From an uncultured Anaeromyxobacteraceae bacterium (lineage in GTDB: Bacteria; Myxococcota_A; UBA9042; DTJE01): a DNA stretch of 64,000 nt. The translations under genes were made by a program, and so were the position numbers. This document shows, in pieces, positions 3,396 to 22,894 of the stretch (within the stretch, counting starts at the first letter, position 1; every line of letters begins with the position of its first letter). The notes beneath the pieces are model-generated. The model did not search any database and was not told where the DNA came from. It saw nothing but the letters and a program-made list of their open reading frames with translations. The stretch is from positions 1,173 to 65,172 of the forward strand of contig CAYYCO010000002.1 in assembly GCA_964470365.1 (NCBI GenBank), in the 5' to 3' direction.

Positions 3396-3524
3396 GATAC
3401 TTTCATTTTTCGAAAGTTTCAAACATTCATGGCACCCGGGAAGCCGCGCAGTTGCGCAATGATGGGGGACTCAAGGCCGCTTTCATGCAACGCCGCGGGT
3501 GCCGACCGACGGGGCGCGCCACCA

Positions 3525-4706: not shown

Positions 4707-4786
4707 GCGCAATACCCTGAAACGAGTCCCCCTATTATGTGCCTGCGGCGCGGATTTCACCTATACCGTGCGCCGACTTTCCGGCG

Positions 4787-6865
4787 TTACGGCGCCATCC
4801 ACACCCATGCGCGATCGGAGGGCAGTTCGGCGCAGCCGCCGTCCAGGGGGGTGTCGGTTGCCAGCGCCTGGGCGGGAATGGGCCAGCCCATGGGTTCGGC
4901 GCCCGGTTCCACCTGCCATGAAAATCCCTGGGACGGCCACCAGATGACGGCCGGAGGATGCAGCCTGCGCCCGCAGCCCGGAACCGGTTCCGGGGCACAT
5001 TCGGTGGTGCCCGCCGATACGCCGGGACATTCACGGTCGCCACACGCGCCGCGCATATCCAGTGCAGCCAGGGTTCCACCGACGAACACCGCCCGGGGCG
5101 CGTCCGAGGCATCCCAGGCAATCATGTACTGGCCGGGATCGCCGGCGTCGGGGATTGCCTGCTTCAGGTAAATCGTCAGGCGTTCGCCCGCCTGGACCGG
5201 CAGCACCCGCGGCGGCGGCAGATCCAGCACCAGCCGGTGTTCGACGCCGTCCGGATCCGTCAGCAGCGTTTCCGAGGTGCCGTCCGGCAGGGTCGACTGG
5301 CCCGTCACGTCCACTTCCACCGTCACCTCGAACGTATCGGCCCGCCCGTCCCAGACAAACGAGGCATGGTCGGCCAGCGGCGTTTCGGCAAGGCAGTCCG
5401 GCAGGTCGCATTCGTACCTGTCGCAGTCGTTCGACGCCAGGCGCAACGCCCCGGCCGAAGGATCCGCCCATGACGCCAGCAGCCGGGCGGAGCCGGTCGC
5501 CGGTTCGGCGTCCAGCAGTTCGAAACCGCCGGGCCCGAGATCCCTGGCAATCAGCACATGCCCGAGGTCCGGTGCCGCCAGGACCGGGGCGCCGCCACCG
5601 GCCATGGGCGCGTCCAGGTTGCCGGACGCCGGGTCCAGTGCGCGCGCGGCCACCGGAAACCATTCCATCACGTCGGTCCCGGTGACTTCCTGGAATTCGG
5701 TCAGCATCAGCCGGCCGCCGTCGCCGGACGCGTCCAGTTCGACCGGAGTCCAGTATGGCCGGCCCGCATCACGCCAGATCGACCGTGGCGCCTGACCGGG
5801 GTCGACGCGGAACACCTCGAAGCCGCCCCAGTTATCCCCCGACACGTGCGAGGCCAGCAGCAGTACCCCGCGTGCGCCCTCCAGGGCCAGAGCACGAACC
5901 ACGGTTGACCCCGGATCCACGGTCCGCGTCACGCCATCCTCGGTGATATCGACCTTGACGCCCCCGTCGGCCCAGGTCATCAAGGCACTGGTGCGGCCAT
6001 CCCACGACAGGGAACGGAACCTTGCGGTATAAACCGACCAGCGGTCGATCCATGCGTCCGGCGAGACCTGTTCGCAACGCGCCAGGTCCAGGCGGCACAG
6101 CGCGACCGGGTTTTCCTGGTCCGTGGTCGCGTCGCGCAGGTAAACCTCGATGATGAACGAACCGTCGCCGGCACGCGCCAGCGCGTTGCCGCTGAAAAAT
6201 GCCTCCCGGCCGGCCCAGTCGTGAACCAGGGGCCGGACGACCAGCTGTCCCGCCACCAGCGACAGGACCTTCCATGTGCCGGGGGCGGCACACGTCCCGT
6301 CGTCCGCCTGCGCCCGCACCAGCACGAATCCGCCGGACTCGATGCTGTCGCAGATGGGGAACGGGATCGGCACCCCGGCCCCGTCGGCCAGGTCCGCCAG
6401 AGTCATGCGCGTATAGTCGTTTCCGTTGCGCGGCCAGGCCATCAGCAGGCCGTCACGGCCGGTGGCGAATCCCATGCCCCAGAATTCCGCCACGCCAAGA
6501 TCGGTTTCGACGCCGGCGTCCACGTCGTATGCCAGCAGGCGCTGTCCGTCCCCGTCATCCAGCGTGTACGCGATGTAACGCCCCGATGGCGATGAAGCCA
6601 GGTGCCGCAGCCCGGTCGGGCCGTCGGCCGCCGACAGGCCGGTCGTTTCATCGGACGACGCGTCGTCCAGCGGCAGGCTGGAACCGGGCAGGCGGACGCG
6701 CTGAAGGACGCCCGTGGCCGAATCGTACCTGAACAGCCGCAGGCCGTCGTGGATCCAGCCCACCGGCACGGGCCGATCGACGACCGGGGCCGGGCCGTCG
6801 CCACCCGAACAGGCGGACAGCAGGGCGAGCAAAGCCGCGATGGCCACGATTGGAACGAATTTCAC
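4787..6865 (-). CDS. Lipoprotein with TolB/PD40-like beta-propeller repeats
   Basis: GTG start with AGAGG upstream. MKFVPIVAIAALLALLSAC lipobox. Repeated ...SPSGRYIAYTLDDGDG...-type blades. Confidence 0.7.
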   Translation of the reverse strand: MKFVPIVAIAALLALLSACSGGDGPAPVVDRPVPVGWIHDGLRLFRYDSATGVLQRVRLPGSSLPLDDASSDETTGLSAADGPTGLRHLASSPSGRYIAYTLDDGDGQRLLAYDVDAGVETDLGVAEFWGMGFATGRDGLLMAWPRNGNDYTRMTLADLADGAGVPIPFPICDSIESGGFVLVRAQADDGTCAAPGTWKVLSLVAGQLVVRPLVHDWAGREAFFSGNALARAGDGSFIIEVYLRDATTDQENPVALCRLDLARCEQVSPDAWIDRWSVYTARFRSLSWDGRTSALMTWADGGVKVDITEDGVTRTVDPGSTVVRALALEGARGVLLLASHVSGDNWGGFEVFRVDPGQAPRSIWRDAGRPYWTPVELDASGDGGRLMLTEFQEVTGTDVMEWFPVAARALDPASGNLDAPMAGGGAPVLAAPDLGHVLIARDLGPGGFELLDAEPATGSARLLASWADPSAGALRLASNDCDRYECDLPDCLAETPLADHASFVWDGRADTFEVTVEVDVTGQSTLPDGTSETLLTDPDGVEHRLVLDLPPPRVLPVQAGERLTIYLKQAIPDAGDPGQYMIAWDASDAPRAVFVGGTLAALDMRGACGDRECPGVSAGTTECAPEPVPGCGRRLHPPAVIWWPSQGFSWQVEPGAEPMGWPIPAQALATDTPLDGGCAELPSDRAWVWMAP

Positions 6866-6948: not shown

Positions 6949-9288
6949 TCACGGACTTGACCACAACGCCTTCTCGCCGCTCATGCCCCCGTCAATCCGC
7001 TGTATGGGATACAAGCCGATCCGATCAGGGCTTCCGCCTGTCGCCAAATGGACGTGGTCCCTGATCAATTCCCATGCGTCGCCCCAGGGCATGAGCCTGT
7101 TCTGGTAATTCAAGCGATATTCCAGCGGTTCAATACTGTGATCCGCAAGCAGGAAGATATGCTTGAATCTGGACAGGTGACGCCGCTGCAATTCCAGCTG
7201 CTCCCGACAGGCAACCAGGTCGGCGGCGGGCGGTCTTGCGGTCGAATCGTTATCCGTAATCGCAATATTCGAGTACTTGCTGGTATTGAATCTGTCCACC
7301 AGGAGATTCTGCGCGAATTCAATACTCGTGCTGACGGGACATTGCGCGGGCCAGAGCTTTTCCACGGGGTAGACGGGGCTTTTCCCGATGATGGCGACAT
7401 ACGGCCAGTCAGCCTGATCCTGTCGATGATTAAATGCAATCACGAGGGAATCCGGAGGCGGATCGAAAGTCGAGACGCTCTTGAAGACCTCGGCAATCGG
7501 CCCCAAGCGGATTCCCGCATACTGGACCCAGCCGAAAACCAGATAGAAAGCCAGAAGGGCCAGGGCCCAGCGGTGGTTCCGGGGTCGCGCAATCCATTCG
7601 CGTATATAGGGGGCGCTGATAATCGCCATTGGAACGTACAGCATGAGCGCATAGCGCCAGAAATTCACGCCCACGGGGCTCAAGGCATTCGAGTATATGA
7701 GCAGGCAGACGATAACGATGAGCTGGTAAGCCCTGGCACGCGGCACCTGCGGATCCTTGAGGGATTTGACGAAAGCCAGCTTCTGCGGAAGAAAAGGCGG
7801 CAGGATGAGTACCGTTGCCAGGAACCATATCGGCAATTTCAGGTACCAGTACGAAACCGTGTCCCCGCCTTTGTTGGCAACCTTGCGCAGGAACGCGCCG
7901 ACCAGCGTGTCGAGATTCCCGGAAAATAACAGAATGAGCATGGCCGCCACGGCCCCCCAGAGGCCGACAATGGCGAAGGCCCGCCAACGCACCCTCCTGC
8001 GCTCGACCCCGTAGTGGCAATATGTCGCCATAAAGGCGACATAGAGTGGCGGCAGGATCATGTAGTCTTTCTTGAGCGCGACGCCCAGCGCCAGCATGAA
8101 CGCAATGGCGACGGAGGCCGCGAACTGCAGCGGCAGGCCCTTGGGCACGGCGTACACGGCCAGCAGCAGGGCCAGATAAAAAACCGGCGTGGCCAGCTGT
8201 TCCTGCACCAGGCTGCCGGCCTGTCCCGTAGTCACGGGCGACAGCAGCACGATGGCGGCGGCAATCAACGCGATGGCCCGTCTGCCATACAGCTTGAAGG
8301 CCAGCAGAAAGGCCAGCACCGGCAACAGCGCCCCCAAAGCGCGACCAGGCAGCAACAGCGCCCCGAAATGATCGCCGAACAACTGCATGGATATATGCAG
8401 CAAGCCGAAAAAGGCCCCGTCATGCTGTCCGTGCCTTGTCCAGACAAGCTGCTGCAACAGCCATGACTTTGAGTGCACGAAAAACAGCGGCGCCGCAAAC
8501 CGGCTGAGCACGCTGAACAACGCAAGCGGCGCATAATAAATGTACGCCCGGACCGGCAGAAGAAACCAGCCGAACACAAGCAGCACAACCAGACAGATGG
8601 TACCGCTGATCAGCCCGAAGCCCCACGGCACATCGGCCATGGGCAAGGCAGGAATCAAGGGTGCGTAGGGGTATTTCGACACGTCGGGGGCCTGCGGCGG
8701 CCCGTCCGGCGACGGGGGCTCCATCTGTTGCGTATCCGCCTGCGCGGGTCCGGATTCGGTCGGCAGCTTTTCATCGTCACGGGCGCTGGTTCTGACCCAC
8801 AATGCCGCCAGCCGTTCGGCCTTGTCGCCCTGAAGAAACCACGATCGCCAGGCATCCACCCCGGCAATGGATACTGCGTTGGACGAAATGCCGCCCGCAC
8901 CATCGGAAAGGCAGATCAGCAGACTCTCATTGCCGAGCACCCGACATTCGCCGGCATCCGGCGGCGCCTGCCCCGCATGGCAGATCGCGAACGAGGGCTT
9001 TTCGGACGGTCCGGTGTCCGTCGTGGTCAGCGTCAGCAAATACTTGTCGAAGGCGATGCGCACATCGACGCTGGCAAATGGCAGGCCGGTGAAGTCGGTC
9101 GGGATCAACAGGTCGGCAGCCGGCCTTTCGGCGGAGCCCGGCACGATGTAGCGGGCATCATCGTCACCCGTGTCGGGCATGCCGTTTGCAGGGCTGGCGC
9201 CGAGCAGGAACAAGCCGGTGAACACGGTCGCGACAATCACCGGTATCGTTGGGTCACGCGCAGGACGCATCGTCGTTGGCCCCGTCAT
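6949..9288 (-). CDS. Large polytopic membrane protein, GT-C-type glycosyltransferase-like (ArnT/PMT-like); family tentative
   Basis: 779 aa. N-terminal signal/exported domain, roughly 11-13 TM helices, C-terminal ~250 aa soluble domain. 4 bp overlap with the upstream rSAM gene. Confidence 0.45.
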   Translation of the reverse strand: MTGPTTMRPARDPTIPVIVATVFTGLFLLGASPANGMPDTGDDDARYIVPGSAERPAADLLIPTDFTGLPFASVDVRIAFDKYLLTLTTTDTGPSEKPSFAICHAGQAPPDAGECRVLGNESLLICLSDGAGGISSNAVSIAGVDAWRSWFLQGDKAERLAALWVRTSARDDEKLPTESGPAQADTQQMEPPSPDGPPQAPDVSKYPYAPLIPALPMADVPWGFGLISGTICLVVLLVFGWFLLPVRAYIYYAPLALFSVLSRFAAPLFFVHSKSWLLQQLVWTRHGQHDGAFFGLLHISMQLFGDHFGALLLPGRALGALLPVLAFLLAFKLYGRRAIALIAAAIVLLSPVTTGQAGSLVQEQLATPVFYLALLLAVYAVPKGLPLQFAASVAIAFMLALGVALKKDYMILPPLYVAFMATYCHYGVERRRVRWRAFAIVGLWGAVAAMLILLFSGNLDTLVGAFLRKVANKGGDTVSYWYLKLPIWFLATVLILPPFLPQKLAFVKSLKDPQVPRARAYQLIVIVCLLIYSNALSPVGVNFWRYALMLYVPMAIISAPYIREWIARPRNHRWALALLAFYLVFGWVQYAGIRLGPIAEVFKSVSTFDPPPDSLVIAFNHRQDQADWPYVAIIGKSPVYPVEKLWPAQCPVSTSIEFAQNLLVDRFNTSKYSNIAITDNDSTARPPAADLVACREQLELQRRHLSRFKHIFLLADHSIEPLEYRLNYQNRLMPWGDAWELIRDHVHLATGGSPDRIGLYPIQRIDGGMSGEKALWSSP

Positions 9289-10283
9289 CTGCCATTAAAC
9301 AATTTCTGACGCACCACATTCGCCACAGCAGAAGGGTTCAGCGCATAAAAAAGGTTGAATTCCAAACGGTTGGCGCACCAGCAATCCGCACAGGTAACTT
9401 TGCCGATCGAATCGAAGGCCGCCTGCAGCCCGACTTCGGCAGCATTCATTCCCGCTCTTGGCACACGACACCGACCACACGGGAAGACATTGCCGAGCGC
9501 GTCAATCCTGCAGGAAACCAGTCCCCCGGCACATTTGATTTCCGTCGGATCCGGCCACCGCCGCAAATGCCGCAGGCCGGCAGGCGAATTGATGATAATC
9601 CGCCTGGCATCCGAACGTTTGCGCGCAATCAATTCATCGATGGCGCGGGTGTACGCCGGTCTTGACGGGGAGAGCGAGTTGTCCAGACCGGAACCGAGCT
9701 GCAGGTGAACGGAAGGCTGAAAACCAACGGGAAGGCGGAGTTCGGAGCAGAGAGTGACCACTTCGCCGATGCGTTCGGCGTTCAATGAATTGATGGTGGC
9801 CGATGCAACGACGTGCAGGCCGCGAGCCCTGGCGGCGTCAATCGCCGAGATCACCTTGTCAAACGTGCTCCTGTGACGAATCCGGTCGTGAATATCGGCC
9901 AGCCCCTCCAGAGACACCGCGATCTGCGACAGCCCGACGATTTCGTTCAGCCGTTCCCCGAGCAGTATTCCGTTGGTGTTCAGCTTTACCAGCATGTCAT
10001 GGCCGCTCGCACGCCTGACGATTGCCGGCAGGTCCTCGCGCAGGAGCGGCTCGCCCCCGGTCAGACTGACTGCGATCGTGCCGCAGGCACGCATCTGGTC
10101 GATCAGATTCAGACACTGTTCCGTGCCCAGTTCGTCGGGAATGCGTTGCCATATGCTGCAGGACGGGCATTGCTCGTTGCAGCGTCCGGTAATGGCCCAC
10201 CCGACAATCAGAGGCCTGCGCACAGGGAGGATTTTCGAGCCCATCAGAGGCAGGGCCCTAATGGCCTTTTCAATCTTTTTCAT
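9285..10283 (-). CDS. Radical SAM enzyme with C-terminal SPASM domain (paralog B)
   Basis: CNEQCPSC (CxxxCxxC), GGEPLL, and C-terminal CAGG...C...PCGRC...CADCWC cysteine cluster. Track start is GTG at 10349. First ATG at 10283 gives an N-terminus the same length as paralog A. Confidence 0.85.
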   Translation of the reverse strand: MKKIEKAIRALPLMGSKILPVRRPLIVGWAITGRCNEQCPSCSIWQRIPDELGTEQCLNLIDQMRACGTIAVSLTGGEPLLREDLPAIVRRASGHDMLVKLNTNGILLGERLNEIVGLSQIAVSLEGLADIHDRIRHRSTFDKVISAIDAARARGLHVVASATINSLNAERIGEVVTLCSELRLPVGFQPSVHLQLGSGLDNSLSPSRPAYTRAIDELIARKRSDARRIIINSPAGLRHLRRWPDPTEIKCAGGLVSCRIDALGNVFPCGRCRVPRAGMNAAEVGLQAAFDSIGKVTCADCWCANRLEFNLFYALNPSAVANVVRQKLFNGR

Positions 10284-11277
10284 GACAATCGTTTTTTGCG
10301 GCTGCGGCTGTGCCGTTCCTGCATAACACTTTACTACCCAACGACGCACGAAACAATGAAACCGCGCCGACGGAGGCCGGCAGCAGGCGCATTATCAAGG
10401 TGACCGCCAGGGCTGACGCGAAGATGGTCGACGCCGGCCCGTCCGAGGCAAAAATCAGAAGAGCCGCGCCCTCCCTGGTTCCAAGCCCGGCAAAAGAAAG
10501 CGGCAGTGCACCGACGACGTGCAACAACAGCAGCTTGTCGAAGAAAACGCCCCCGAGCACCGGTGCAAAAAACGCCACCAGCACCGCGAAGCGCAGGAAT
10601 TCATCAATGTAAACGAGCGCCATCAGGCTGACCCTCGCGGGCACCCTCATGCCGGCGATCGCGGCCAGCGCCCCCTTCAACTGATGAATCAGTTTCCACT
10701 TTTCCGGCTCGCCCTGCCCCTGCTTGACGGCCCCGGGCATTTTGATCAGGCATAGCGCAAGGCATGTCGACAGCATGGTCAACGCGATAAGGGTCCACTG
10801 GAGCGGGGGATTGCCGTAACCGAGCAGCCCCATGCCCAGCGGCAGCAGGCCCAGCAGAGCCAGGAGTTTGTCCAGGCCCCACAGGCTGATTGACTGCCCG
10901 TTGTTCAGTCCCAGGCGCCTGCCCACGACGTAGTACGCGCCGGGATCGCCCAGGAAAAATGGAACGAACGCCTTGATAAACAGCAACAGTGCCCGATTAT
11001 CAATGAGGCGGCCGAAGCCCACAGGCACGCCGATTGCGTTCAGCAGCAGTCGATGGCGCAGGGCCCGCAGGATGAAGTTCGCCAGCACGCTGGCCAGTAT
11101 CGCGAATGCCAGCGCACGCAGGTCAACTGCCATGAGGACCGAAAATTCATCCCGCTCCCCGGCGTGAATCAGATACGCGATGCACAGGCCATACAGAACC
11201 GGCACCGGGGCCAGCTTCAAAATGAATCGGGCCCGGGGCGTCAGTCGACCGAATGAATGTTCGAGAGAAACCGGCAT
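10270..11277 (-). CDS. Flippase-like / lysylphosphatidylglycerol-synthase TM-domain family membrane protein (UPF0104)
   Basis: About 8 TM helices with a ...FAGLGTREGA... motif typical of LPG_synthase_TM. Track start is GTG at 11310. First ATG at 11277. Confidence 0.55.
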   Translation of the reverse strand: MPVSLEHSFGRLTPRARFILKLAPVPVLYGLCIAYLIHAGERDEFSVLMAVDLRALAFAILASVLANFILRALRHRLLLNAIGVPVGFGRLIDNRALLLFIKAFVPFFLGDPGAYYVVGRRLGLNNGQSISLWGLDKLLALLGLLPLGMGLLGYGNPPLQWTLIALTMLSTCLALCLIKMPGAVKQGQGEPEKWKLIHQLKGALAAIAGMRVPARVSLMALVYIDEFLRFAVLVAFFAPVLGGVFFDKLLLLHVVGALPLSFAGLGTREGAALLIFASDGPASTIFASALAVTLIMRLLPASVGAVSLFRASLGSKVLCRNGTAAAAKNDCHEKD

Positions 11278-11321
11278 GCCCACCCCGCCGGCCACGCAAG
11301 GCCGCGTCACAGAGCCATATG

Positions 11322-12752
11322 TTATTTCTTTCGCTTTCTGGTATCCGAATGGACGGCATAGACCAGCATCCGAAGGGCGGTTCGAGCGCCACGCCGGAAT
11401 TCTTCCTTCGAACGGACGCGGGAGAGCGCCCGCAGGACATACGTGGGCCGATAATAGAACCAGTAGTAGGCCATCTTAGTCCACAGTTCGATGCTGCCCT
11501 CGCTCATCTCCGTCCACGGGTTCGGCAGGCGCGCCTCCTCCGCGTTGCCAAGAATGTAATCCCGCCAGAAATCCTTTCCGGTGCGTTTGATCATTTCCGA
11601 ATCGAGATCCGTGCAGGGCTTGGCGATGGTGCGGGAGAACTGGGCGTAATCCAGATCGAGACCGGTGGCATAATCGATGGTACGCAGAAGGCTCATCGGA
11701 GTCTCGCCCGGTACACCGGTCATGAAGAATCCCAGAGCCTTGATTCCGGCCTGGCGCGTCGCACGCAGCGCCAATGAAACCTTCTTCGCATCGACCTTCT
11801 TGTTCATCAGTTTCAGATGGTCTTCCGACGAGGTTTCAATTCCGAAATATATCTTTCGGCAGCCGGCACGGGCCATCAGGTCAAGCAGATCCGGATCCAC
11901 GGCATCTATGCGCGATCGACAGGACCATTCCAGATCCATCTGCCGTTCGATAAGCCCGTTGCAGAGATCGGTGATGCGGCGCCGATTTAGAGGGAAATCG
12001 GCGTCAAAGAAGTCGATTTCCCGCACGCCGTACTTGTCGTAACACTCCTGGATCTCTTCCAGAACGCTCCCGACGCTGCGGGCGTAATACGGGATCTTCG
12101 CGATGGCACAGAATGAGCACTTGTAGGGACACCCCTTGCTGGTAAGCATGATGGTGAAATTGCGGCGCTGGGACGTGATGGAATAATAACGATCATTGGG
12201 CAGCAGATGGCGCGCCGGGAACGGAAGTTCGTCGAATTCGGACTCCGTCGCGGGCGGCGAGATCACGATGCCGCCTTCCCGGCGATAGCAGACGCCCGGA
12301 ATGCCGTCAGGCTCCGTCCCTTTTTCAAGGGCATCGATCAGAAGGGGCAGAGAGTGCAGTGCCTCGCCGGAAATCGCGTAATCAATCGCCTCGTGGGTCA
12401 TCGTTTCCCGCGGATAGAGGGACAGGTTGATTCCGCCGGCCAGAATCGTCGCGCCAAGCGCCTGACGAATCGCCGCGGCATAGGCAAGGGTGTCGTGAAA
12501 CATGTAGGTCGAAAAATAGAAACCCACGTATTTCGGGGCAAATTCGGACAGGGCGGCGATCGTTTCCGGGATGCCGAGCTTCAGTGCATTTGCGTCCAGC
12601 AGAATTACTTCGTGGCCGGCCTTTTCCGCAATCGCCGCCGCATAGGCCAGGTTGATCGGGGGAAAAACCCCGAAATCCTTGTCCACTACCAGGATGTTTT
12701 CTGAAAAACGCTTGTGTTCATAAGGGGCAAAAACAAAAGCGATGCGAGCCAT
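11322..12752 (-). CDS. B12-binding-domain radical SAM enzyme (class B rSAM)
   Basis: N-terminal Rossmann-like B12-binding region (ARIAFVFAPY...VILLDANAL), then KGCPYKCSFC radical-SAM motif and the TIM-barrel core (IYFGIETSS). Confidence 0.85.
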   Translation of the reverse strand: MARIAFVFAPYEHKRFSENILVVDKDFGVFPPINLAYAAAIAEKAGHEVILLDANALKLGIPETIAALSEFAPKYVGFYFSTYMFHDTLAYAAAIRQALGATILAGGINLSLYPRETMTHEAIDYAISGEALHSLPLLIDALEKGTEPDGIPGVCYRREGGIVISPPATESEFDELPFPARHLLPNDRYYSITSQRRNFTIMLTSKGCPYKCSFCAIAKIPYYARSVGSVLEEIQECYDKYGVREIDFFDADFPLNRRRITDLCNGLIERQMDLEWSCRSRIDAVDPDLLDLMARAGCRKIYFGIETSSEDHLKLMNKKVDAKKVSLALRATRQAGIKALGFFMTGVPGETPMSLLRTIDYATGLDLDYAQFSRTIAKPCTDLDSEMIKRTGKDFWRDYILGNAEEARLPNPWTEMSEGSIELWTKMAYYWFYYRPTYVLRALSRVRSKEEFRRGARTALRMLVYAVHSDTRKRKK

Positions 12753-12755
12753 GCG

Positions 12756-13745
12756 TTAATTCACCAGCCGCACAACGTCCGCCAGAGGCCGCGGATCAAG
12801 TGAATACAGCATGTTAAGTTCGAGCGACCCGCAGAAACCGCATCCGCTGCACGATACGGCCGGAAGTTTCCCGATTGCCTCGCCAATGCTGCTGGTACGG
12901 ATGTTCGGCAGCGGCGTCGCGTACGAGACGCGATCGCAGGGCAGAATCGTTCCGTCCGAATCGATCATTATAAATACTTTGCCGGCCGAACATTCCAGGG
13001 GAGGATAGTTGGGCCAGTCGGAGATGTATTTCAGTTCGGCCAGGGAATTTCGGATGCTCCGGTTGCCGCCGCGTTTCTGATCGGTCAGCCAGGCAACAGC
13101 GTCACGCATATCAATGGCATCCGGGGCCAGTTCCCCGACGTTTTCCACCCCACGATATAAATCTTTTACCGGTTGAAATGCCACCACGCACCCAAACCCT
13201 TCAGCAATTTCGAGGATTTGCGGCAAGTGATGAACATTGAAGCGCGTTATCGTGGTCGAAAAACTGATCTTCTTGAGCCGCCGCGAGGCCAGTTCTGCGG
13301 CTTCAATTGCGGCCGCGAAAGCACCCTTCCTGCCACGCACCAGGTCATGAATTTCTTCCGGCCCGTCCAGGCTGATCTTCAGCAGTTCCAGGCCGGCGAG
13401 CTGGTCAATCCGTTTGTGGAGCATGTAACCGCTGCTGTTCATGCTCGGCGCCAGCCCCAATTCGGCCGCGCAGGACACCAGTTCACCGATATCCTTTCGA
13501 AGCAACGGTTCGCCGCCGGAAAATGAAACGTGAACGGTGCCCAGCGATTTCAATTCTGCCAGGCCCCGCTTGATAATCTCGGTCGGAAGTTCCGAAGTTG
13601 CCGAATTTCCCCAGATGTTGCAGTAGGCGCAACGATTGATACAGCGATCCAGCAGATTCCACCGCACCGCCACCGGAACGGGCCGCCCGCCAAGACGAAC
13701 CTTCAGCAGGCAAAGACTGGCCTTGAGTTGTCGCGTGACTCTCAT
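12756..13745 (-). CDS. Radical SAM enzyme with C-terminal SPASM domain (paralog A)
   Basis: CINRCAYC, GGEPLL, and C-terminal ECSAG...PCDRV...CSGCGFCGS. An ATG also exists at 13871. The 13745 start makes its N-terminus co-linear with paralog B. Confidence 0.85.
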   Translation of the reverse strand: MRVTRQLKASLCLLKVRLGGRPVPVAVRWNLLDRCINRCAYCNIWGNSATSELPTEIIKRGLAELKSLGTVHVSFSGGEPLLRKDIGELVSCAAELGLAPSMNSSGYMLHKRIDQLAGLELLKISLDGPEEIHDLVRGRKGAFAAAIEAAELASRRLKKISFSTTITRFNVHHLPQILEIAEGFGCVVAFQPVKDLYRGVENVGELAPDAIDMRDAVAWLTDQKRGGNRSIRNSLAELKYISDWPNYPPLECSAGKVFIMIDSDGTILPCDRVSYATPLPNIRTSSIGEAIGKLPAVSCSGCGFCGSLELNMLYSLDPRPLADVVRLVN

Positions 13746-14059
13746 TACCGAATCCCGATACCGCAGCCGCCCGGCTTGATGAAGGGATGAAGAAACCCCC
13801 ACAACCCCAATTCGGCAAAGTATGCCAATACTGACCGGGTTGTCAAACCGGTCTTCTCCCGATATTCCCATCCGTCGGGGCGGTTCGGTCGACGCGGGTC
13901 GCGGGCGCGGGCTGCTGCAGGTGCTGTGAACGCTCCGGATGTGTCAGGCAAATCTCCGGTTCCGGTTTGACTTCGCCGGACTCCATGAAATAAACTTTTG
14001 TCCGGCAATTCGTCTGATTGTGACAACCGATTGCTCTGACTCATTTTCTGGCAATAAAG
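13746..14059. promoter_or_regulatory. Divergent intergenic region (probable bidirectional promoter/operator) between the rSAM operon and the nitrogenase-like operon
   Basis: 314 bp non-coding (188 bp if the rSAM starts at 13871). Contains an imperfect inverted repeat ggcaattcg...ccgattgc near 14000-14035. No sigma-70 consensus could be assigned confidently. Confidence 0.35.
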
Positions 14060-14878
14060 ATGCAGCGCGAACGGGTGGCGGTGTACGGCAAGGGAGGGGG
14101 TGGCAAGTCTTTCATTTCCGCCAACCTTTCCGTTGAATTCTCGCGCCATGGTTACAGCACCCTGCAGATCGGCTGCGACCCCAAACACGATTCGACCAGG
14201 TCACTCACTTCCGGCAAATCCATCAGGACCGCGCTTTCGTACATGGAAGAAACCGGCCGGCTTGTCGGCAACACGGAATTCGACGTTGTCCAGGGACTTG
14301 AAGGTGTTGCGTGCGTCGAAACCGGCGGGCCGGAACCGGGTGTCGGCTGCGCGGGTCGCGGGATCGTCAGCGCTTTCCAGTTTTTCAGGTCCAGGAACCT
14401 CCTGGACAGATACGACGCCGTGGTGCTTGACGTCCTGGGCGACGTCGTCTGCGGCGGATTCGCCGTGCCGATGCAGCGCGGATTCGCGGAAAAGATCGTC
14501 ATCGTCGTTTCCAATGCCCTCATGTCCATGTATGCGGCGAACAACATCGCACGTGCCCTGGTCCGGTACCGCCGAAACGGGGTATTTCTGGCCGGCATAA
14601 TCGCGAACAATCTTCGCGACGACGACGACGAACAGGAAATTCGACGTTTCGCCGAAGGGTTGAGGGCGCCGGTCATCGCCGCGTTCCGCCATGACCTTCT
14701 GGTCCGCAGGGCCGAAAGGATGGCGCTTCCGCTGCTGGTGGCATTTCCCGACTGTTCCACGGCCGGGGCCTTCCGCGGCCTGGCCGATGCGATAATCAAC
14801 GCCGGCCGGGTCGATGACTGCCCGACGCCATACAGCGAGGAAGAACTGGACTGTTTCTTCAGGAGCCTGCACGAATGA
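14060..14878 (+). CDS. NifH/BchL/CfbC-family ATPase (nitrogenase-like Fe-protein homolog)
   Basis: YGKGGGGKS P-loop, CDPKHDSTR switch I, GGPEPGVGCAGRG (Cys97 equivalent) and VLGDVVCGGFAVP (Cys132 equivalent, switch II). Confidence 0.9.
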   Translation: MQRERVAVYGKGGGGKSFISANLSVEFSRHGYSTLQIGCDPKHDSTRSLTSGKSIRTALSYMEETGRLVGNTEFDVVQGLEGVACVETGGPEPGVGCAGRGIVSAFQFFRSRNLLDRYDAVVLDVLGDVVCGGFAVPMQRGFAEKIVIVVSNALMSMYAANNIARALVRYRRNGVFLAGIIANNLRDDDDEQEIRRFAEGLRAPVIAAFRHDLLVRRAERMALPLLVAFPDCSTAGAFRGLADAIINAGRVDDCPTPYSEEELDCFFRSLHE

Positions 14879-17031
14879 AGCAGTCGCAGCATCGTGCGAT
14901 CCTTGATGAATTTTCGTTCATGGCGCGCCGTCTCGGGTTCAGAATGATGGTCCCCCGTCCCGACGGGTCCCTGTTCATTCTTGTCGAACCGGGGCGCCGG
15001 CTCCTCTGGGTTCCCGAGGCGCGGGCCGGGGATATCGTGGTCAAGGGCATCCCCGGGGGGTTTTCCGGCGACGGGATCGCGCCCGCGGATCTCGAAAACA
15101 CGACACTTCGCCTGCGCGAATCGCTCGAGAGAAAAGAACTGCCGCTTCTGACGTGGCGCACGAATACCGATGTCCCGATTGAACTGTCCAGGTGGCTGGT
15201 CGATTTCCACCTCAGTCCTTTCCTTCAGGAAGAAGTGAGCTCCTGGGGTGAATTCAGGCTGCAGAAAGTCGAGGAACTCGGGGTCGACTCGGTTGCGGTG
15301 ACGTTCCAGGCCCGCGATGCCGTTGTCGTGTGCGAGGTCCGCGCGCTTCGGCTGGTGGATGCGCTAGAACTTTCGCAGTGGCATGTCGTGAATCCGCTGG
15401 CCTGGCGCGTCACTTCCGACACGCGGCTTGATGTCGAGGGCTACAGGGCGCGGCCGGAATACTATCTGTCATATGCCCTTGTTCGAACCTTCGCCCCGGG
15501 CCAGGTGACAAGGGCATTCATTCAGCCGCCAGGCGGGGCCGCGGCCGGCGAGGCCGGCGGTGGAAAAGGATGCACGATCGCTGCCGGCGACGGCTCCGGG
15601 AAAGAGGCCCGCGACACCGTCGCACAGGGATGTTCCTGCGCTTTGCCGCCCGATCCCCGGCAGGAAGTCCCGATCGACAGATTCTTCATGCCTCCGGATT
15701 TCAACCTTCTGGGCGCAGGCGACGTCTTCAGCACCCTTAACAATGCCGGGCCTGAATTCGCGCTGCTTTTCGTTGCGCCGCGCGCCTGCCTGAAGATGCC
15801 GATGTCGGCCAGCTTCAACGCGACAACCTATCTGTGGCACCGGTACGCCAGCCTGCCCATGCAGGTTTCCCGCGCGGTCGCCGCAGTCACCACGATTGAC
15901 GAAATCGACCTGGTGATGAGCATGGAGCGCCAGGTCGTGCAGGTGCTGGACAAGTCGCTGGAGGATCCCGGGGTCAGGATCCTGGTGGTGTTCAGTTGCT
16001 GCGTTGCGGATTTTGTCGGACTTGACGTCGAAGGTATCGTCAGGGAGCGCCTTGGGGATTCGCAAATGCCGCTGATTCTCTGGGGGGCAAGCCCCTGGGG
16101 TCTCGCTTCGGTCGAGGCTTTCTGGCGCCAGGTGTTTGCCATAGCACCACGTCCCCGTTCCGGATTCAAGCCTTCAGGCGTCAACCTTGTCGGGTTCGCG
16201 CCGAATGATTCCCGCATGACGGCGGAACTTGCGCTTGATCTTGGGTCAGCAGGCATCAGGGTGAATTCCACGATGGTGCCGAGCCTTGAATACGACGCTC
16301 TTAACGCGTTCAACAACGCGGAACTCTCCGTGGTTCCGATCGACGACAGCGTCCGCCTGGAACTCGGTTCGGTCCTGGAAGAAACTACATCTCCCCCCGT
16401 TTTGAGGGTTCAAAGACCTTTCGGACTCGATGGAAGCCTGAAGTTCGTCAGGAGCGTGGCATCAACCCTGGGGGTCGCCGAGGCTCCGGGGCTGCTGGAA
16501 AGCGCCGAACGGCACAGGGCCGCCTGGGACGAATACAAAACCCTGGCCTCCGGCTGCACCGTGGCCATCCCTCTCGACATGAGGACGGCTGCCTGCATCA
16601 CCAGACCCGGTGTGCTGTACGGGATCCCGGTGGTGGATCTCATCCGGGAGATGGGTTTCCGTGTCCTGATCATCGTCAGTTACCGCCGTGAAGATGGCGA
16701 AGACGTCCGACAGGTTGTCAGGGAGATCCGCTCCCTATATCCCGAGGGTGTCGATCCCGGCATTGTCATCGAAACGGCGTCGGGCGCCGAAGCGCTTCTC
16801 GATCGACTTGCGGCGGACGACGTTTCGATGGTCATGTCGGAGTTCGCGCCGGACACGCGCGTCACGGAAATGGGAAAATTCAGTTTCGCGCCGCGGCAGC
16901 TTGAGATGGGGCTGGCGGGGGCATTGCGTTCGCAACGGCTGTTGCTGCGGATGGCCCGGTCATCGTCCGTGCTGCGTCGTTTCGACGCCGTCGCCCGGGA
17001 CGCGGTCGGCTTGCCGGGGGAGGTGGTGTAA
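14875..17031 (+). CDS. Nitrogenase component-1-like (NifD/BchN/ChlN-like) subunit with ~235 aa N-terminal extension
   Basis: ATGA overlap with the NifH-like gene. C-terminal ~480 aa carries Oxidored_nitro-like motifs: ...FVAPRACLKM (cf. ChlN GSRTCAH), ILVVFSCCVADFVGLDV (cf. ChlN LVGSCPSEVIKLD, NifD TTCTTGLIGDD) and VNLVGF...AELALDLGSAGIRVN (cf. NLIG...E..LLE.GI.VN). N-terminal 1-235 has no recognisable domain. Confidence 0.7.
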   Translation: MKQSQHRAILDEFSFMARRLGFRMMVPRPDGSLFILVEPGRRLLWVPEARAGDIVVKGIPGGFSGDGIAPADLENTTLRLRESLERKELPLLTWRTNTDVPIELSRWLVDFHLSPFLQEEVSSWGEFRLQKVEELGVDSVAVTFQARDAVVVCEVRALRLVDALELSQWHVVNPLAWRVTSDTRLDVEGYRARPEYYLSYALVRTFAPGQVTRAFIQPPGGAAAGEAGGGKGCTIAAGDGSGKEARDTVAQGCSCALPPDPRQEVPIDRFFMPPDFNLLGAGDVFSTLNNAGPEFALLFVAPRACLKMPMSASFNATTYLWHRYASLPMQVSRAVAAVTTIDEIDLVMSMERQVVQVLDKSLEDPGVRILVVFSCCVADFVGLDVEGIVRERLGDSQMPLILWGASPWGLASVEAFWRQVFAIAPRPRSGFKPSGVNLVGFAPNDSRMTAELALDLGSAGIRVNSTMVPSLEYDALNAFNNAELSVVPIDDSVRLELGSVLEETTSPPVLRVQRPFGLDGSLKFVRSVASTLGVAEAPGLLESAERHRAAWDEYKTLASGCTVAIPLDMRTAACITRPGVLYGIPVVDLIREMGFRVLIIVSYRREDGEDVRQVVREIRSLYPEGVDPGIVIETASGAEALLDRLAADDVSMVMSEFAPDTRVTEMGKFSFAPRQLEMGLAGALRSQRLLLRMARSSSVLRRFDAVARDAVGLPGEVV

Positions 17032-18276
17032 TTGAAAATCGCCCCTTACTTCCTTGACGGCTGCATCCTGACGCTTGCCGGAATGCCCGACCTGGTGTCC
17101 GTTATCGATTCTCCCCTGTGCGAACTCGAGCGGGCCTACACCCTCGATCTCGTCAGCGACGGACACGCGAGCCTTCTTGGCGGCGGCCCTTACGCGAGGG
17201 GCACGAAGCGGCTGTTCACGGTGGACTGGACCCACGGACGCGACGTCAGCGGCGTCGAGCAGAGCCTTGTCGAAAGCATCATGGCCACCGCAGCGATACA
17301 CCCCGACAAACCAATAATGGTCCTCGCCGGTTTTCTGTCGCTGCTGGTGAACACCGACATACCCGGCCTTGTCGCGGATCTGTCCAGCCGTGTCGGCAAC
17401 CCGCTCATCACGGTGAAACAGGATTCTCTGGACGATGACTGGATTGACGGGATTGCTGCCACCCAGGCAGCCGTGCGCGCCGCCATGCCCGTTTCCGGCG
17501 GCGATCCCGGAAGGCCGGTTTTCGAAGGCTACGCTTTCCTTCGACAGAGCGGCGACGAGTGGGGGGACGTGGCGGAACTTGCGGCGTTCGCCAGGTCGGT
17601 CGGCCTGCCGGACCCGATATGGCCTTTTAACGGAATCACGTCTTTTCGAACGCCGTCGCATCCGTCGGCGCCGCGCATCAGGTTCCCGTATGCGCCTGCG
17701 ACCGGGGACGGGAGGGCCGTCGATGTGCCGCTGCCGATCGGACTGGACGACACCGCGCGTTTCATTCGGGTCCTTGCGGACATCGCCGGAAATCCCGCCG
17801 CCGGCGAAGAACTGATTGAACGCGAAACCATGCGCGTGATCAGGATACTCATTCCGCGGATAACGAAGTCCTTCGCGGGCCTGGGCGCTGTCGTGGTGGC
17901 GGACCCGGCGAGGGCCAGGGGGCTGGTGCTGGCGCTTCGCGACCTGGGGATATTCACCCCGCTTGTGATTGCGCTGCGACGATCCGGCATGGGCGAGGAA
18001 GACCTGGCAGCGTGCAGGGGCCCCGGCACCACGGTGATGGTGAATCCGACCCAGCATGACGTGGAAGAAAAGTTCCATGAGGTGGCCTCGAACGGACAGG
18101 CCACCCTGATGATCGGCTCCGGGTTGACGCGGGACGCTGCCCGGAATGCCGGGCTCTCGGTGATCGAGGCGGCATATCCGTGCGTGGCCGAAACCTTTGC
18201 GGCAATGACCCCTCTGATGGGATTCAACGGTTTGCTGCACCTGGCGGATCGCATCGATTCGGCCCTGCTCAGGTGA
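17032..18276 (+). CDS. Nitrogenase component-1-like (NifK/BchB/ChlB-like) subunit
   Basis: TTG start 1 nt after the upstream stop, with GGAGGTG upstream. N-terminus MKIAPYFLDGCILTLAG...VSVIDSPLCELERAY resembles BchB/ChlB MKLAYWMYAGPAHIG...VHAIMHAPLGDDY. Rossmann-like repeats follow. Confidence 0.6.
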   Translation: MKIAPYFLDGCILTLAGMPDLVSVIDSPLCELERAYTLDLVSDGHASLLGGGPYARGTKRLFTVDWTHGRDVSGVEQSLVESIMATAAIHPDKPIMVLAGFLSLLVNTDIPGLVADLSSRVGNPLITVKQDSLDDDWIDGIAATQAAVRAAMPVSGGDPGRPVFEGYAFLRQSGDEWGDVAELAAFARSVGLPDPIWPFNGITSFRTPSHPSAPRIRFPYAPATGDGRAVDVPLPIGLDDTARFIRVLADIAGNPAAGEELIERETMRVIRILIPRITKSFAGLGAVVVADPARARGLVLALRDLGIFTPLVIALRRSGMGEEDLAACRGPGTTVMVNPTQHDVEEKFHEVASNGQATLMIGSGLTRDAARNAGLSVIEAAYPCVAETFAAMTPLMGFNGLLHLADRIDSALLR

Positions 18277-18423: not shown

Positions 18424-19308
18424 ATGGGGGTTATTACCATGACCGTCCGGAAGTGCCAGATTCCGAAGTCACTGTTTTTATTGATGGCGGCAGCTCTGTG
18501 CCTGGGCGCCGGCGGCTGCAAAAAATCCAGCGACACCAAATCAGTCGTCGACAATGCCGCACCCGGAGTTGCCGTCAAGCCGCCTGCCGACAAACCGATG
18601 CCCACCGGACTCCCCGTGGTCGATGAGCCTTCGGACCCGGTCACGCCGCAATCCTCGGATGACAAGCTGGCCCAGCACTTCCGCATCACAATCGACGAAT
18701 TGAAGCAGATCCGGGATACCCATGCCACTTTCCCGGTCCTGGAACTGCCGGCGTGGGCGGCCGAGGCGAAACAGGACAAGGGGCTCCCGAAAAAGAACGC
18801 GGCGATTGCCATGCCGCCTTTCAGGGTCATCACGGCGCAGGAACTGTCGAATGTTGAAACCGTGAAATGGGCCGACATCCTCAATTCCGTAAAGGAAGTC
18901 AGCCAGCGTGCCTTCGCGCTCAAAATCCCCGTATTCACCAAACCGATCGTGTTCCTCGATCTCGTCCCCGACGCCCCGGAGGGACGGGCATCCGCATTCA
19001 TCGGCCTGCCGGTGCCTGACAGCGTCAAGATTCCAAAGGGCCTCCAGACACGCGTCATGAACCAGGGCAAGGCACTTTTCCTGGGCTACAAGGATATCGA
19101 TTCACTGGGAATCTCGTCCGACGCCAAGGAACTGATGAACAAACTGAGCCCCCAGCTGGCGGTCGAAGGGAAATGCGAGGCATCGCTGATGGTCATGATC
19201 GAAGACTGGCCCACGGGGAATCCAGGTCAGCGGGAGGGTGCATCCCCCGCCACCGGCATGGCAAAGCCGACCGACGCCATGAACAGAGTCCTTCTCATCT
19301 GTCGCTGA
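18424..19308 (+). CDS. Hypothetical lipoprotein
   Basis: Signal peptide plus LGAGGC lipobox. No recognisable domain. Confidence 0.6.
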   Translation: MGVITMTVRKCQIPKSLFLLMAAALCLGAGGCKKSSDTKSVVDNAAPGVAVKPPADKPMPTGLPVVDEPSDPVTPQSSDDKLAQHFRITIDELKQIRDTHATFPVLELPAWAAEAKQDKGLPKKNAAIAMPPFRVITAQELSNVETVKWADILNSVKEVSQRAFALKIPVFTKPIVFLDLVPDAPEGRASAFIGLPVPDSVKIPKGLQTRVMNQGKALFLGYKDIDSLGISSDAKELMNKLSPQLAVEGKCEASLMVMIEDWPTGNPGQREGASPATGMAKPTDAMNRVLLICR

Positions 19309-19318
19309 AGGCACTCCG

Positions 19319-20869
19319 ATGAAATTTCTGCGAATGGCGCCGATCCTGCTGCCTGCAATTCTCGCGGCACAGGCCGCGTGTTCCGATGTCGCCGATTCCG
19401 ACGCCGACGACGGGCCTTGCGTCCCGCGGACATGCGACTACGAAAACCGCGAATGCGGCGCGATGTCGAACGGCTGCGGGGGCATGATCTCCTGCGGAAC
19501 CTGCGATCCCGGCTTTACGTGCCGTTTCGGGGCGTGCCGTGAAATCTGCGTGCCGGACTGCACCGGCAGGTGCGGGGGCAGCGACGGGTGCGACGGCTCC
19601 TGCCCCGACCGCTGCAGCCTCACAGGCCAGACCTGCGACGCAAACACCCGTGAATGCATCGGCGAATGCGTGCCCCGTTCATGCGTTTCGCTCGGTTACG
19701 AATGCGGTACATGGGACGACGGGTGCGGCGGCAGCGCCCGGTGCGGCGACTGCCTGCCTGGCGCGCCATGCGATGACGGACGCTGCGGCGCAATCGCGTC
19801 GGAGGGCCTGGGCGTCAGGTGCGAATCCGACCCGGCGGTCTGCCGGGCCCCCTTCCCCGACTGCATCAAGCTGTCCGGCGACCCTGCATTCTGTTCCCGC
19901 GAATGCCTGTCCGACGGCCAGTGCGGCATCGCGGGAACTGACACCCAGGGCAATCCGGTCCCGAACTGCTGCGTCCCGATAGACGGCGTGGGGCGGTGCG
20001 TGTCCGCCGATTTGATGAGCTGGATGTGCGAAGACCCGACGGACGCCTCGTGGTGTACCATCGACGAAACGTGCCTGCCCTCGCCGCTCGGCGCGTGCAT
20101 ATTCTGTTTCCCGGTCGGGCAGCTCACGGTCGGCGACGCATGTTCCGGGTTCAATTCGTGCGACAAGGGCCTTGCCTGCGTGAAACCGGTCGGTGACAAC
20201 AAGGCGGCCTGCCACGAAATCTGCGACCCGGCCGACATGGACGCGTGCATCGCAGACGGCCAGGATCGGCACTGCGTGGCCATGTCGGAACTCGGGGCGT
20301 GGGGCGTCTGCGTCGACGGTCCGCCCCCGTGCGACCCGTCGAAACTGGGGGCCACCTGCCCGACGGCCTGGAACTGCGTTCCCGACGCCGCCTGTTCATC
20401 GTTCGCATGCTCAAAAACAGGCGGCAAGGCGATCGGGGAACCGTGTTCCGAATACGATGCCTGCGCCCGGGGCGGCTACTGCGCCGACGGAACCTGTCGC
20501 GAAATGTGTTCCGTTTCGGACGGCTGCCCTGATTCATATGAATGCGTCCAGGGGTGCGGAACAAAAATCCGGTACTGCAACCCGGTCGGCGGAAACGACT
20601 GCAACCCCCTGCTGCCGAAATGGCTCTGTCTGGCCGGTCAGACCTGCGTGCCGGACAGCCTCTCAAACTGCGCGGCCGGCACATGCGTGGTGGCGGGAAA
20701 GACGGGCGGCGGCGGCGGCTGCGACGCGCATTCCGACTGCGTGTACGGCAGCATCTGTTACAACGATGCGTGCAGGCCGATCTGTACGCTGTCAAGGACC
20801 TGCGAACCGCCTTCGTACTGCTTTTACATATGCGGGGGTTCCGATCTGGGCGTCTGCATGACCGGCTAA
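19319..20869 (+). CDS. Secreted cysteine-rich repeat protein (myxobacterial Cys-rich repeat type)
   Basis: Lipobox AAQAAC. About 10 tandem ~40 aa modules of the form C.P..C...G.CG...DGCGG...CG.C. Confidence 0.75.
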   Translation: MKFLRMAPILLPAILAAQAACSDVADSDADDGPCVPRTCDYENRECGAMSNGCGGMISCGTCDPGFTCRFGACREICVPDCTGRCGGSDGCDGSCPDRCSLTGQTCDANTRECIGECVPRSCVSLGYECGTWDDGCGGSARCGDCLPGAPCDDGRCGAIASEGLGVRCESDPAVCRAPFPDCIKLSGDPAFCSRECLSDGQCGIAGTDTQGNPVPNCCVPIDGVGRCVSADLMSWMCEDPTDASWCTIDETCLPSPLGACIFCFPVGQLTVGDACSGFNSCDKGLACVKPVGDNKAACHEICDPADMDACIADGQDRHCVAMSELGAWGVCVDGPPPCDPSKLGATCPTAWNCVPDAACSSFACSKTGGKAIGEPCSEYDACARGGYCADGTCREMCSVSDGCPDSYECVQGCGTKIRYCNPVGGNDCNPLLPKWLCLAGQTCVPDSLSNCAAGTCVVAGKTGGGGGCDAHSDCVYGSICYNDACRPICTLSRTCEPPSYCFYICGGSDLGVCMTG

Positions 20870-22809: not shown

Positions 22810-22894
22810 CGAACCCACCGGGCGATCACCATCCGGCACAAACCGCTTGACAATCCCGCGCCTTTCGCAAATAATCTGTCCGCTTTTTGGCTGT

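Follow-up and report, generated by a model that had tools for sequence, protein, structure and literature searches.

We analysed a 64,000-nucleotide stretch of contig CAYYCO010000002.1 (assembly GCA_964470365.1, an uncultured Anaeromyxobacteraceae bacterium), called the window below. In it, three plus-strand genes for nitrogenase-like H, D and K components (NflH, NflD and NflK, 14060-18276) stand head-to-head with a minus-strand operon of radical-SAM and membrane protein genes (13745-6949). Judged by sequence, the trio most probably belongs, as a new and very divergent member, to Group VI, a published group of the nitrogenase-like (NFL) enzymes. It is not the undescribed system that the original prediction had taken it for, since Group VI and its radical-SAM link have already been published (Méheust et al. 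2020; PMC13474568). New here are an N-terminal domain of the D subunit, the pattern of its cluster ligands and a non-tetrapyrrole gene context. As for function, we put it at somewhat better than even that the H/D/K reductase shares a single organic substrate, which may be membrane-associated, with the radical-SAM tailoring enzymes. The trio and its parts are as follows.

14060-14878, plus strand: NflH, NifH-like ATPase and [4Fe-4S] reductase component, 272 aa (PF00142 Fer4_NifH, E = 3.9e-76)
14875-17031, plus strand: NflD, 718 aa (PF00148, E = 7.8e-23, residues 317-612 only)
14875-15540, plus strand: N-terminal domain of NflD, residues 1-222, a fold without known homologue
15646-17031, plus strand: nitrogenase-component-1-like core of NflD, residues ~258-718 (PF00148 and the alignment with the D protein of the metagenome-assembled genome J133)
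17032-18276, plus strand: NflK, 414 aa with a TTG start, the second component-1-like subunit (PF00148, E = 3.1e-28)

The matches to PF00142 and PF00148 are significant, which bears out the earlier reading of these genes as a nitrogenase-like trio, and the trio does not nest inside a characterised clade. NflH has the P-loop GKGGGGKS at residues 10-17, the two cluster cysteines Cys97 and Cys131, and the switch-like motifs DPKHDST and DVLGDVVCGGF, all read from the sequence; with these present, it should be a normal ATP-dependent electron donor. Among the NCBIfam models, its best match is CfbC with 255.7 bits against a cut-off of 402, while NifH gives 248.5 (cut-off 394), BchX 176.7 (331) and BchL 174.5 (345). 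For D and K the corresponding values are 31.5 for BchN (420), 27.4 for BchB (490) and 19.1 for BchZ (529), and the models of NifE, BchN and BchB give scores of 16-32 bits. The equivalog scores for DPOR and COR are 2- to 25-fold under their cut-offs. Membership in DPOR, COR, CfbCD, Nif or methylthio-alkane reductase (MAR) was rejected, as no cut-off was reached, in agreement with the original prediction, which had placed the trio outside all of them. From the PDB chains, the closest solved structure to NflH is MarH (9FMG, 198 bits) and that to the D-family profile is MarD (67 bits), both from the R. rubrum methylthio-alkane reductase.

The connection to Group VI was made through the relatives of NflH, which are found at 47-55% identity and whose loci keep the order H, long D, K. 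One H relative with 48% identity to NflH, P0017, is encoded in J133 (GCA_003694255.1). The D protein of J133 (464 aa) aligns to NflD residues 258-698 with E = 8e-33, and its K protein has 33% identity to NflK. Table S2 of Méheust et al. 2020 (bioRxiv 10.1101/765248) lists J133 among the Group VI genomes, and P0017 is assumed to be the J133 protein scored there. In a neighbour-joining tree of 118 H sequences, NflH falls in a 40-member clade together with the J133 H protein and the H protein of every long-D locus, and the CfbC-labelled sequences lie outside this clade in 100 of 100 bootstraps. The tree holds no Elusimicrobia Group VI, NifH or BchL references, and to that extent the placement is provisional. 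The labelled relatives come from MAGs of 'Deltaproteobacteria' or Myxococcales.

According to Méheust et al. 2020, the 'Group VI' NifH paralogs were defined in Elusimicrobia lineages IV and V, and were also found in two Gracilibacteria and fourteen Myxococcales genomes. Their H proteins have a glycine-rich loop for MgATP and a Cys97/Cys132 pair bridging the [4Fe-4S] cluster, and a broad set of genes for radical-SAM proteins, some of them B12-binding, lies beside the Group VI genes in three phyla. In section 7 of PMC13474568, a Chem Rev review of 2026, Group VI is described as an NFL of unknown function with simple Fe-S clusters. Its genomes lack NifB and its proteins lack FeMo-co ligands, and of the six P-cluster cysteines the D/K pairs keep four at most. 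The window agrees with these descriptions in the P-loop and two cluster cysteines of H, in the divergent D and K with few P-cluster cysteines and no FeMo-co ligands, and in the radical-SAM neighbours, one of which is B12-binding. It also agrees in the occurrence in MAGs of Myxococcales or 'Deltaproteobacteria' and in the presence of several D/K sets per genome in relatives. Cofactor assembly genes of the NifB or NifEN type were not seen in the 64-kb window, the part of the genome covered here. It differs by the D domain of about 220 aa and by the genes for flippase-like and other polytopic membrane proteins, neither of which is described in the accessible text on the group. Group VI is the one major branch of the nitrogenase superfamily without an assigned function, which PMC13474568 treats as an open problem. 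Since one of the listed genomes, Enhygromyxa salina SWB007, is that of a cultured myxobacterium, the group is accessible to experiment.

The D subunit has an N-terminal extension of about 300 residues before the PF00148 region, a feature absent from the original account of the locus. In a HMMER scan of 1.84e9 (1.84 billion) representative proteins, 485 relatives of NflD were found at E <= 0.001 and 23 at E <= 1e-30, with at most 34% identity to any of these proteins. The top of the list consists mostly of forms with 570-790 aa and not of NifD or BchN. A word-index protein search had given almost nothing for NflD, and the family emerged only by the full HMMER scan. A narrow scan of genome contigs with the D alignment returned two loci, both in one MAG, and the scan of metagenomes returned one 3-kb fragment.

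Within the extension, the N-terminal domain of about 220 aa has a confidently predicted fold for which no structural homologue was found, and residues 223-257 form a variable low-complexity linker. A hidden Markov model (HMM) of the domain detected it in 59 of the 149 best NflD relatives. A second D subfamily of about 600 aa carries a different N-extension, non-homologous to that of NflD (2% probability in the profile-profile comparison with hhalign), and a third of about 455 aa, which includes the J133 D protein, has none. No mention of the domain was found in the accessible parts of Méheust et al. 2020 or PMC13474568. It is probably a family-specific add-on for the recognition of a substrate, carrier or partner, with membrane binding as a further option, and its presence should mark proteins with that substrate or partner recognition.

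The cluster ligands were evaluated from alignments of both subunits. An alignment of 22 D members leaves C305 and C376 as the sole invariant cysteines and shows no invariant histidine. C376 lies in the motif 'TC..liG.D' and aligns with 'tsCptaiiGDD' of MarD, that is, with the Cys154-type ligand of MarD and NifD. C305 would be the Cys88-type ligand, from its position and its 'HGxxGC'-like context rather than from alignment. NflK has 35-42% identity to the K proteins of seven long-D loci, and in an alignment of 9 K sequences the sole invariant cysteine is C30, which takes the NifK Cys95-type position, and conservation is lacking at the Cys153-type one. With three invariant interface cysteines (two in D and one in K) and no ligands for an M- or L-type cluster, a single simple cluster of the [4Fe-4S] type is indicated. 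A non-cysteine fourth ligand has a precedent in DPOR, in which the cluster is held by three Cys and one Asp (PMC13474568). The ligand set narrows the likely chemistry to two-electron reductions like those of DPOR and CfbCD.

These ligands also bear on the role that the original prediction had offered for the radical-SAM enzymes, namely that the SPASM-type ones build a complex Fe-S-C cofactor for D and K as NifB and MarB do. NifB and MarB are themselves radical-SAM enzymes, MAR needs MarB (PMC13474568), and isethionate reductase is linked to a radical-SAM enzyme as well. Against this, the D family has two invariant cysteines and no counterpart of NifD Cys275 or His442, and only half of the P-cluster ligands are kept. 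Each SPASM-type protein has 58-59 NCBIfam matches, and NifB does not appear in the listed best 25 for either; nor do NifB or FeMo-co ligands occur in Group VI genomes (PMC13474568). As the ligands for an L- or M-type cluster are absent from the D family, the NifB-like role was rejected, and we regard cofactor assembly as most improbable.

When compared with the characterised systems, the trio shares with DPOR and COR the three-component H/D/K arrangement, the simple inter-subunit [4Fe-4S] cluster with fewer than four canonical cysteines, which is predicted here, and, as the likely chemistry here, the use of ATP to reduce a C=C bond in an organic molecule. DPOR has three Cys in N and an Asp in B, whereas the window has two Cys in D and one in K; the window D also has the extra N-terminal domain, and there are no Bch or Chl genes in the window. 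CfbCD resembles the trio in that CfbC is the best NCBIfam match of NflH and in the simple [4Fe-4S] cluster of its catalytic component, but CfbD works without a K subunit, whereas the K of the window is conserved, and genes for F430 or methanogenesis are absent. MarBHDK and isethionate reductase are, like the trio, NFL systems tied to a radical-SAM enzyme, and the nearest solved structures by sequence belong there. However, MAR depends on MarB and contains clusters of both the P-type and the L-type, while the window has neither the ligands nor a NifB/MarB-like match nor sulfur-salvage genes nearby. Nitrogenase and MAR have six P-cluster cysteines (three in D and three in K) and an M/L-cluster cysteine, compared with three invariant cysteines here. 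The absence of tetrapyrrole, F430 and methionine-salvage genes beside the trio, which had been noticed before, holds for the whole window.

The genes on the other side of the divergent region, and the region itself, are as follows.

13746-14059: divergent intergenic region, 314 bp, and a promoter-like site for each strand (minus, 13846-13819; plus, 13967-13996)
12756-13745 (longest open reading frame to 13871), minus strand: radical-SAM protein with partial SPASM/twitch C-terminus, 329 aa from Met43 (Radical_SAM 2.1e-20)
11322-12752, minus strand: B12-binding radical-SAM enzyme, 476 aa (B12-binding 6.2e-15 and Radical_SAM 9.5e-24)
10270-11310, minus strand: flippase-like polytopic membrane protein, LPG_synthase_TM, 346 aa (PF03706, E = 1.6e-12)
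9285-10283 (longest open reading frame to 10349, rSAM354), minus strand: second radical-SAM protein, 332 aa from Met23 (Radical_SAM 2.8e-21)
6949-9288, minus strand: M779, polytopic membrane protein, 779 aa (from hydropathy; no family matches)
4787-6865, minus strand: lipoprotein-like protein, 692 aa, possible operon tail (signal peptide followed by Cys)
3525-4760, minus strand: DUF2804 protein, 411 aa, possible operon tail (PF10974, E = 4.6e-75)

All eight open reading frames (ORFs) that the original prediction had assigned to the two operons are present at its coordinates, and its head-to-head layout and coupling-type junctions were reproduced. ATGA overlaps occur at the H/D junction and at the junction of rSAM354 with M779, the latter being M779's sole tie to the operon. 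The TTG start of the K gene lies immediately 3' of the D stop. The stop of the LPG_synthase_TM gene overlaps rSAM354 by 14 nt, given the Met23 start; apart from the ATGA overlaps and the D/K junction, the junctions span 3-14 nt, with a gap of 3 nt between the first radical-SAM gene and the B12-binding one. Two promoter-like sites were found in the divergent region against 0.2 expected in shuffles: TTGACT-18-TAAACT at 13967-13996 (plus), which points toward the H gene, and TTGACA-16-CATACT at 13846-13819 (minus). Because the latter falls inside the longer ORF of the first radical-SAM gene, the predicted start at 13745 (Met43) is plausible. A search of the divergent region against Rfam gave no riboswitch or other RNA at E <= 1. 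The minus-strand operon may continue through 4787-6865 and 3525-4760, whose membership in the system is uncertain. The 692-aa lipoprotein-like gene is on the same strand with an 83-nt gap to M779 and a GAGG resembling a ribosome-binding site (RBS), and its product has no Pfam family match; the DUF2804 gene is 26 nt from the gene upstream.

The CX3CX2C motif is present in all three radical-SAM proteins of the window. For the first one, SPASM (PF13186) scores 20.2 bits, just under the cut-off of 21.5; it has five C-terminal cysteines, and its best NCBIfam matches are PTO1314, PqqE and NirJ, all far under their cut-offs. The second one has no Pfam SPASM match and seven C-terminal cysteines, including the GX4C element GNVFPC. 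The C-terminal stretches of these two proteins look alike by eye, the pair not having been aligned. The B12-binding enzyme has HpnJ as its top NCBIfam match over the full length (135.8 bits; cut-off 577.6), then ApyD, BzaD and BchE, none at cut-off. Thus, of the predicted set of two SPASM proteins and one B12-binding protein, the three radical-SAM enzymes and the B12 domain stand, but the SPASM assignment is weak or non-canonical in both cases.

The conservation of this neighbourhood was examined in a context survey of 9-10 loci. Nine loci with D/K homologues, the window included, enter the following count of radical-SAM genes within 10 kb.

Window: three, all no more than 5 kb from nflH, one of them B12-binding
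L002: four, and one weak; also a SnoaL protein
L005: two, adjacent and convergent, one with SPASM
L006: two, at a distance of 6.5-9 kb, recognised solely from weak BLAST similarity and the CX3CX2C motif
L014: at least seven
L007: one, and one weak
L001, L008 and L009: none within 10 kb

Radical-SAM genes are therefore close to D/K in 5-6 of the nine loci, against a rough estimate of a few tenths per 20 kb. The predicted linkage to a radical-SAM operon survives at the level of the class, which recurs, but the minus-strand operon of the window is not conserved in the loci examined. The class recurs and differs in detail, which is the pattern of tailoring enzymes grouped around a conserved core reaction.

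Several of these loci have features of their own. In L002 (GCA_964594295.1, 12996-15320), the K-like protein has 774 aa with a C-terminal extension of about 350 aa that contains CX3CX2C and has no Pfam match, and its gene is followed by three radical-SAM genes, the gene of the SnoaL-domain protein and a B12-binding radical-SAM gene. L014 (GCA_039794305.1, 1-21887) has a 628-aa D and a K without an adjacent H among its at least seven radical-SAM genes; two of these encode B12-binding proteins and one a fusion with a methyltransferase, and an HxsB-like protein (192 bits) is encoded beside K. L001 and L009 are long-D sets about 520 kb apart on the same contig, ctg94814l of ENA ERZ21869602 (2.37 Mb). 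The L001 set includes H. In the L009 set H is missing beside D and K, and a PMT-type GT-C membrane protein is encoded 4 kb upstream. In L008, unusually long transporters of the major facilitator superfamily (MFS) type flank H, D and K (6949-8838, 629 aa, and 3400-5808, 802 aa), the 629-aa gene lying immediately upstream of H in the same orientation.

We propose the following mechanism. NflH, a P-loop ATPase that would form a homodimer bridged by a [4Fe-4S] cluster, would drive low-potential electrons into NflD/NflK by ATP hydrolysis. NflD/NflK would hold a simple inter-subunit Fe-S cluster on the two D and one K cysteines, with no P-cluster and no FeMo-co or L-type cofactor. For lack of these cofactors, the substrate would be organic and not N2; the bond reduced would most plausibly be C=C or one similarly hard to reduce, as in DPOR, COR and CfbCD. 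The two SPASM/twitch-type enzymes and the B12-dependent radical-SAM enzyme would probably tailor the same molecule, and the flippase-like protein, M779 and the lipoprotein-like neighbours suggest that this molecule could be membrane-associated or exported. The reaction type, the sharing of a substrate by the two operons and the membrane location are all inferred, and for the sharing in particular we see a modest preponderance in favour.

A number of points weigh against this proposal. No Group VI enzyme has been characterised biochemically in the literature accessible to us. The radical-SAM proteins of different loci have at most 31% identity and are not orthologous, so the link is a statistical one at the class level and lineage-specific in detail. 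Three loci, L001, L008 and L009, lack such genes within 10 kb altogether. The D protein of L014, the locus richest in radical-SAM genes, is in the subfamily with the different N-extension. M779 is an orphan, which rules it out as a conserved component of the system, and nearby membrane proteins are weak evidence, being common in any genome. As HpnJ, BchE, AhbC and NirJ match the window proteins at similar sub-cut-off scores, the radical-SAM matches cannot separate a lipid from a tetrapyrrole substrate. Finally, every characterised simple-cluster NFL enzyme acts, to our knowledge, on tetrapyrroles.

The last point leads to a tetrapyrrole route, in which the trio would reduce a ring double bond of a porphyrinoid and radical-SAM enzymes like AhbC, AhbD, NirJ and BchE would alter its side chains, with a novel cofactor or pigment as the product. 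It was proposed by Méheust et al. 2020 (10.1101/765248) from phylogeny and from the radical-SAM neighbours with B12-binding or HemN_C domains, and tetrapyrroles are the substrates of all the NFL enzymes with simple [4Fe-4S] clusters, namely DPOR, COR and CfbCD (PMC13474568). The better NCBIfam matches of the radical-SAM proteins in the window include AhbC, NirJ, AhbD and BchE. However, these matches cover the generic radical-SAM core at scores 4-7-fold under the cut-offs, on a par with PqqE, MftC, HpnJ and ApyD. No tetrapyrrole genes were found in the 64-kb window or in the Pfam lists of L001, L002, L007, L008, L009 and L014 (L005 and L006 are partly annotated). The FAD enzymes of L014 score 227 and 170 bits with the HpnE/phytoene-desaturase family against 35-41 with protoporphyrinogen oxidase, and most Elusimicrobia with Group VI lack uroporphyrinogen III synthesis (Méheust et al. 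2020). We consider the tetrapyrrole route possible but unlikely. The contexts, with membrane genes, HpnE/CrtI-like enzymes in L014 and no tetrapyrrole genes, make a tetrapyrrole assumption insecure.

An isoprenoid-type lipid or lipid-linked compound is slightly favoured over a tetrapyrrole at this locus. The hints are each weak: the LPG_synthase_TM protein and the polytopic M779 in one operon with apparent translational coupling, HpnJ as the top match of the B12-binding enzyme, the HpnE and CrtI/CrtD enzymes of L014, the PMT-type GT-C protein of L009 and the lack of tetrapyrrole genes. In L014, which has the clearest isoprenoid-flavoured context among the loci read, D and K are flanked by two flavoenzymes of the CrtI/CrtD family and by an HpnE-like enzyme, which scores 227.6 bits against a cut-off of 283. 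The window can also be compared with the hopanoid genes hpnH, hpnJ and hpnL, as it has a radical-SAM protein matching HpnH (8.6e-20), a B12-binding one with HpnJ on top and an LPG_synthase_TM protein together; HpnL belongs to the LPG_synthase_TM family. The scores are far under the equivalog cut-offs and there is no squalene-hopene cyclase in the window, so this is a lead at the class level and not membership. Extended to the whole long-NflD branch, the idea would be an ATP-driven reductase that saturates or remodels isoprenoid or other lipid(-linked) substrates of the membrane under anoxic conditions. The N-terminal domain would dock the lipid, the membrane or a carrier, and lineage-specific radical-SAM enzymes would methylate or cross-link the lipid before a flippase-like transfer across the membrane. 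In this extended form it is a long shot; if true, it would give the first nitrogenase-family enzyme in lipid biochemistry, and any non-tetrapyrrole substrate would extend the range of reactions known for nitrogenase-like enzymes.

The membrane proteins themselves were described from profile matches and hydropathy. The LPG_synthase_TM protein scores 47.9 bits with PF03706 (cut-off 33.4) and has about 8 hydrophobic segments. M779 has about 11: one N-terminal segment, a loop of about 190 aa, about 10 more segments and a C-terminal domain of about 180 aa. With DTGDDD after the first segment its topology is compatible with GT-C, with a pLDDT of only 42 in a single-sequence AF2 model. A word-index search of 5.8e9 clusters gave M779 self-matches only, Pfam and PDB gave no match even at E = 10 and NCBIfam gave none, so the GT-C label is without search support.

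Peptide maturation was also considered, in which SPASM-type and B12-binding radical-SAM enzymes would modify a ribosomally synthesised and post-translationally modified peptide (RiPP), the trio would reduce a residue and MatE or other membrane proteins would export the product. Maturases of the PqqE, MftC, sactipeptide, ranthipeptide and ApyD types are among the NCBIfam matches, the HxsB-like protein (192 bits) is beside K in L014, and the radical-SAM set differs from locus to locus, as is seen in natural-product clusters. But every maturase match is under its cut-off, and Pfam shows no protease, leader-peptide-binding domain or RiPP recognition element. In keeping with the original observation that no precursor peptide is evident, there is no credible small ORF with a start and an RBS around 13700-14100, the other gaps (at most 295 nt) not having been examined in depth. 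We know of no NFL enzyme that acts on a peptide. The RiPP cluster was rejected, no precursor being found in the gaps around 13700-14100, and this explanation is very doubtful. In rank, a lipid or isoprenoid substrate thus stands slightly above a tetrapyrrole, peptide maturation is low and cofactor assembly is lowest.

It has further to be asked whether the trio and the radical-SAM/membrane operon belong together at all, or are functionally separate units that happen to be neighbours, possibly on an acquired island. The cluster is located within a stretch of about 22.7 kb between tRNA-Arg (95-172) and tRNA-Lys (22894-22971), with a GC content at third codon positions (GC3) of 0.63-0.76 compared with 0.79-0.86 in the flanks and an AbiEi/AbiEii toxin-antitoxin pair at one end (1879-3422). 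This suggests that the stretch may be a horizontally acquired island; no integrase was found in the Pfam scans, beyond which no search for integrases or repeats was made. Mere adjacency fits such a segment, the minus-strand genes without orthologues in the related H/D/K loci, the orphan M779 and the long-D loci L001, L008 and L009 without radical-SAM genes nearby. It is at odds with the clustering of radical-SAM genes near Group VI in three phyla (Méheust et al. 2020) and in 5-6 of nine loci here, and the 314-bp head-to-head layout with paired promoter-like sites favours co-regulation. On these grounds independent operons seem unlikely to us.

The remainder of the window is ordinary chromosome, with genes for RecA, a ComM-like protein, BamA/TamB-like proteins, AcrB/HlyD and glutamate dehydrogenase, among others. 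The same sequence is also found in the Logan assemblies SRR10083296 and SRR10083294. The lipoprotein-like genes at 18424-20869 were tried as a part of the system and rejected, as no homologue occurs in the related loci. The second of them (19319-20869, plus strand), directly downstream of a gene for a 294-aa lipoprotein-like protein, encodes a 516-aa lipoprotein-like protein with 75 Cys and no Pfam match. Between the MatE gene and tRNA-Lys, a small CxxCxxCC protein (PF03692; 22114-22809, plus strand), putatively metal-chelating, is encoded; it is also present in Logan contig L004. At the far end of the window, a gene of the 3-oxo-5-alpha-steroid 4-dehydrogenase family (62345-63130, minus strand, E = 3.2e-53) adjoins one of the 3-beta-hydroxysteroid dehydrogenase (HSD)/epimerase family (63127-63981, minus strand), a sterol-type modification pair that is unusual in bacteria. 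An unrelated 990-aa protein (36764-39736, minus strand) combines a weak response-regulator receiver match with PPDK_N, the ATP-binding domain of phosphoenolpyruvate-utilising enzymes, which is an unusual fusion.

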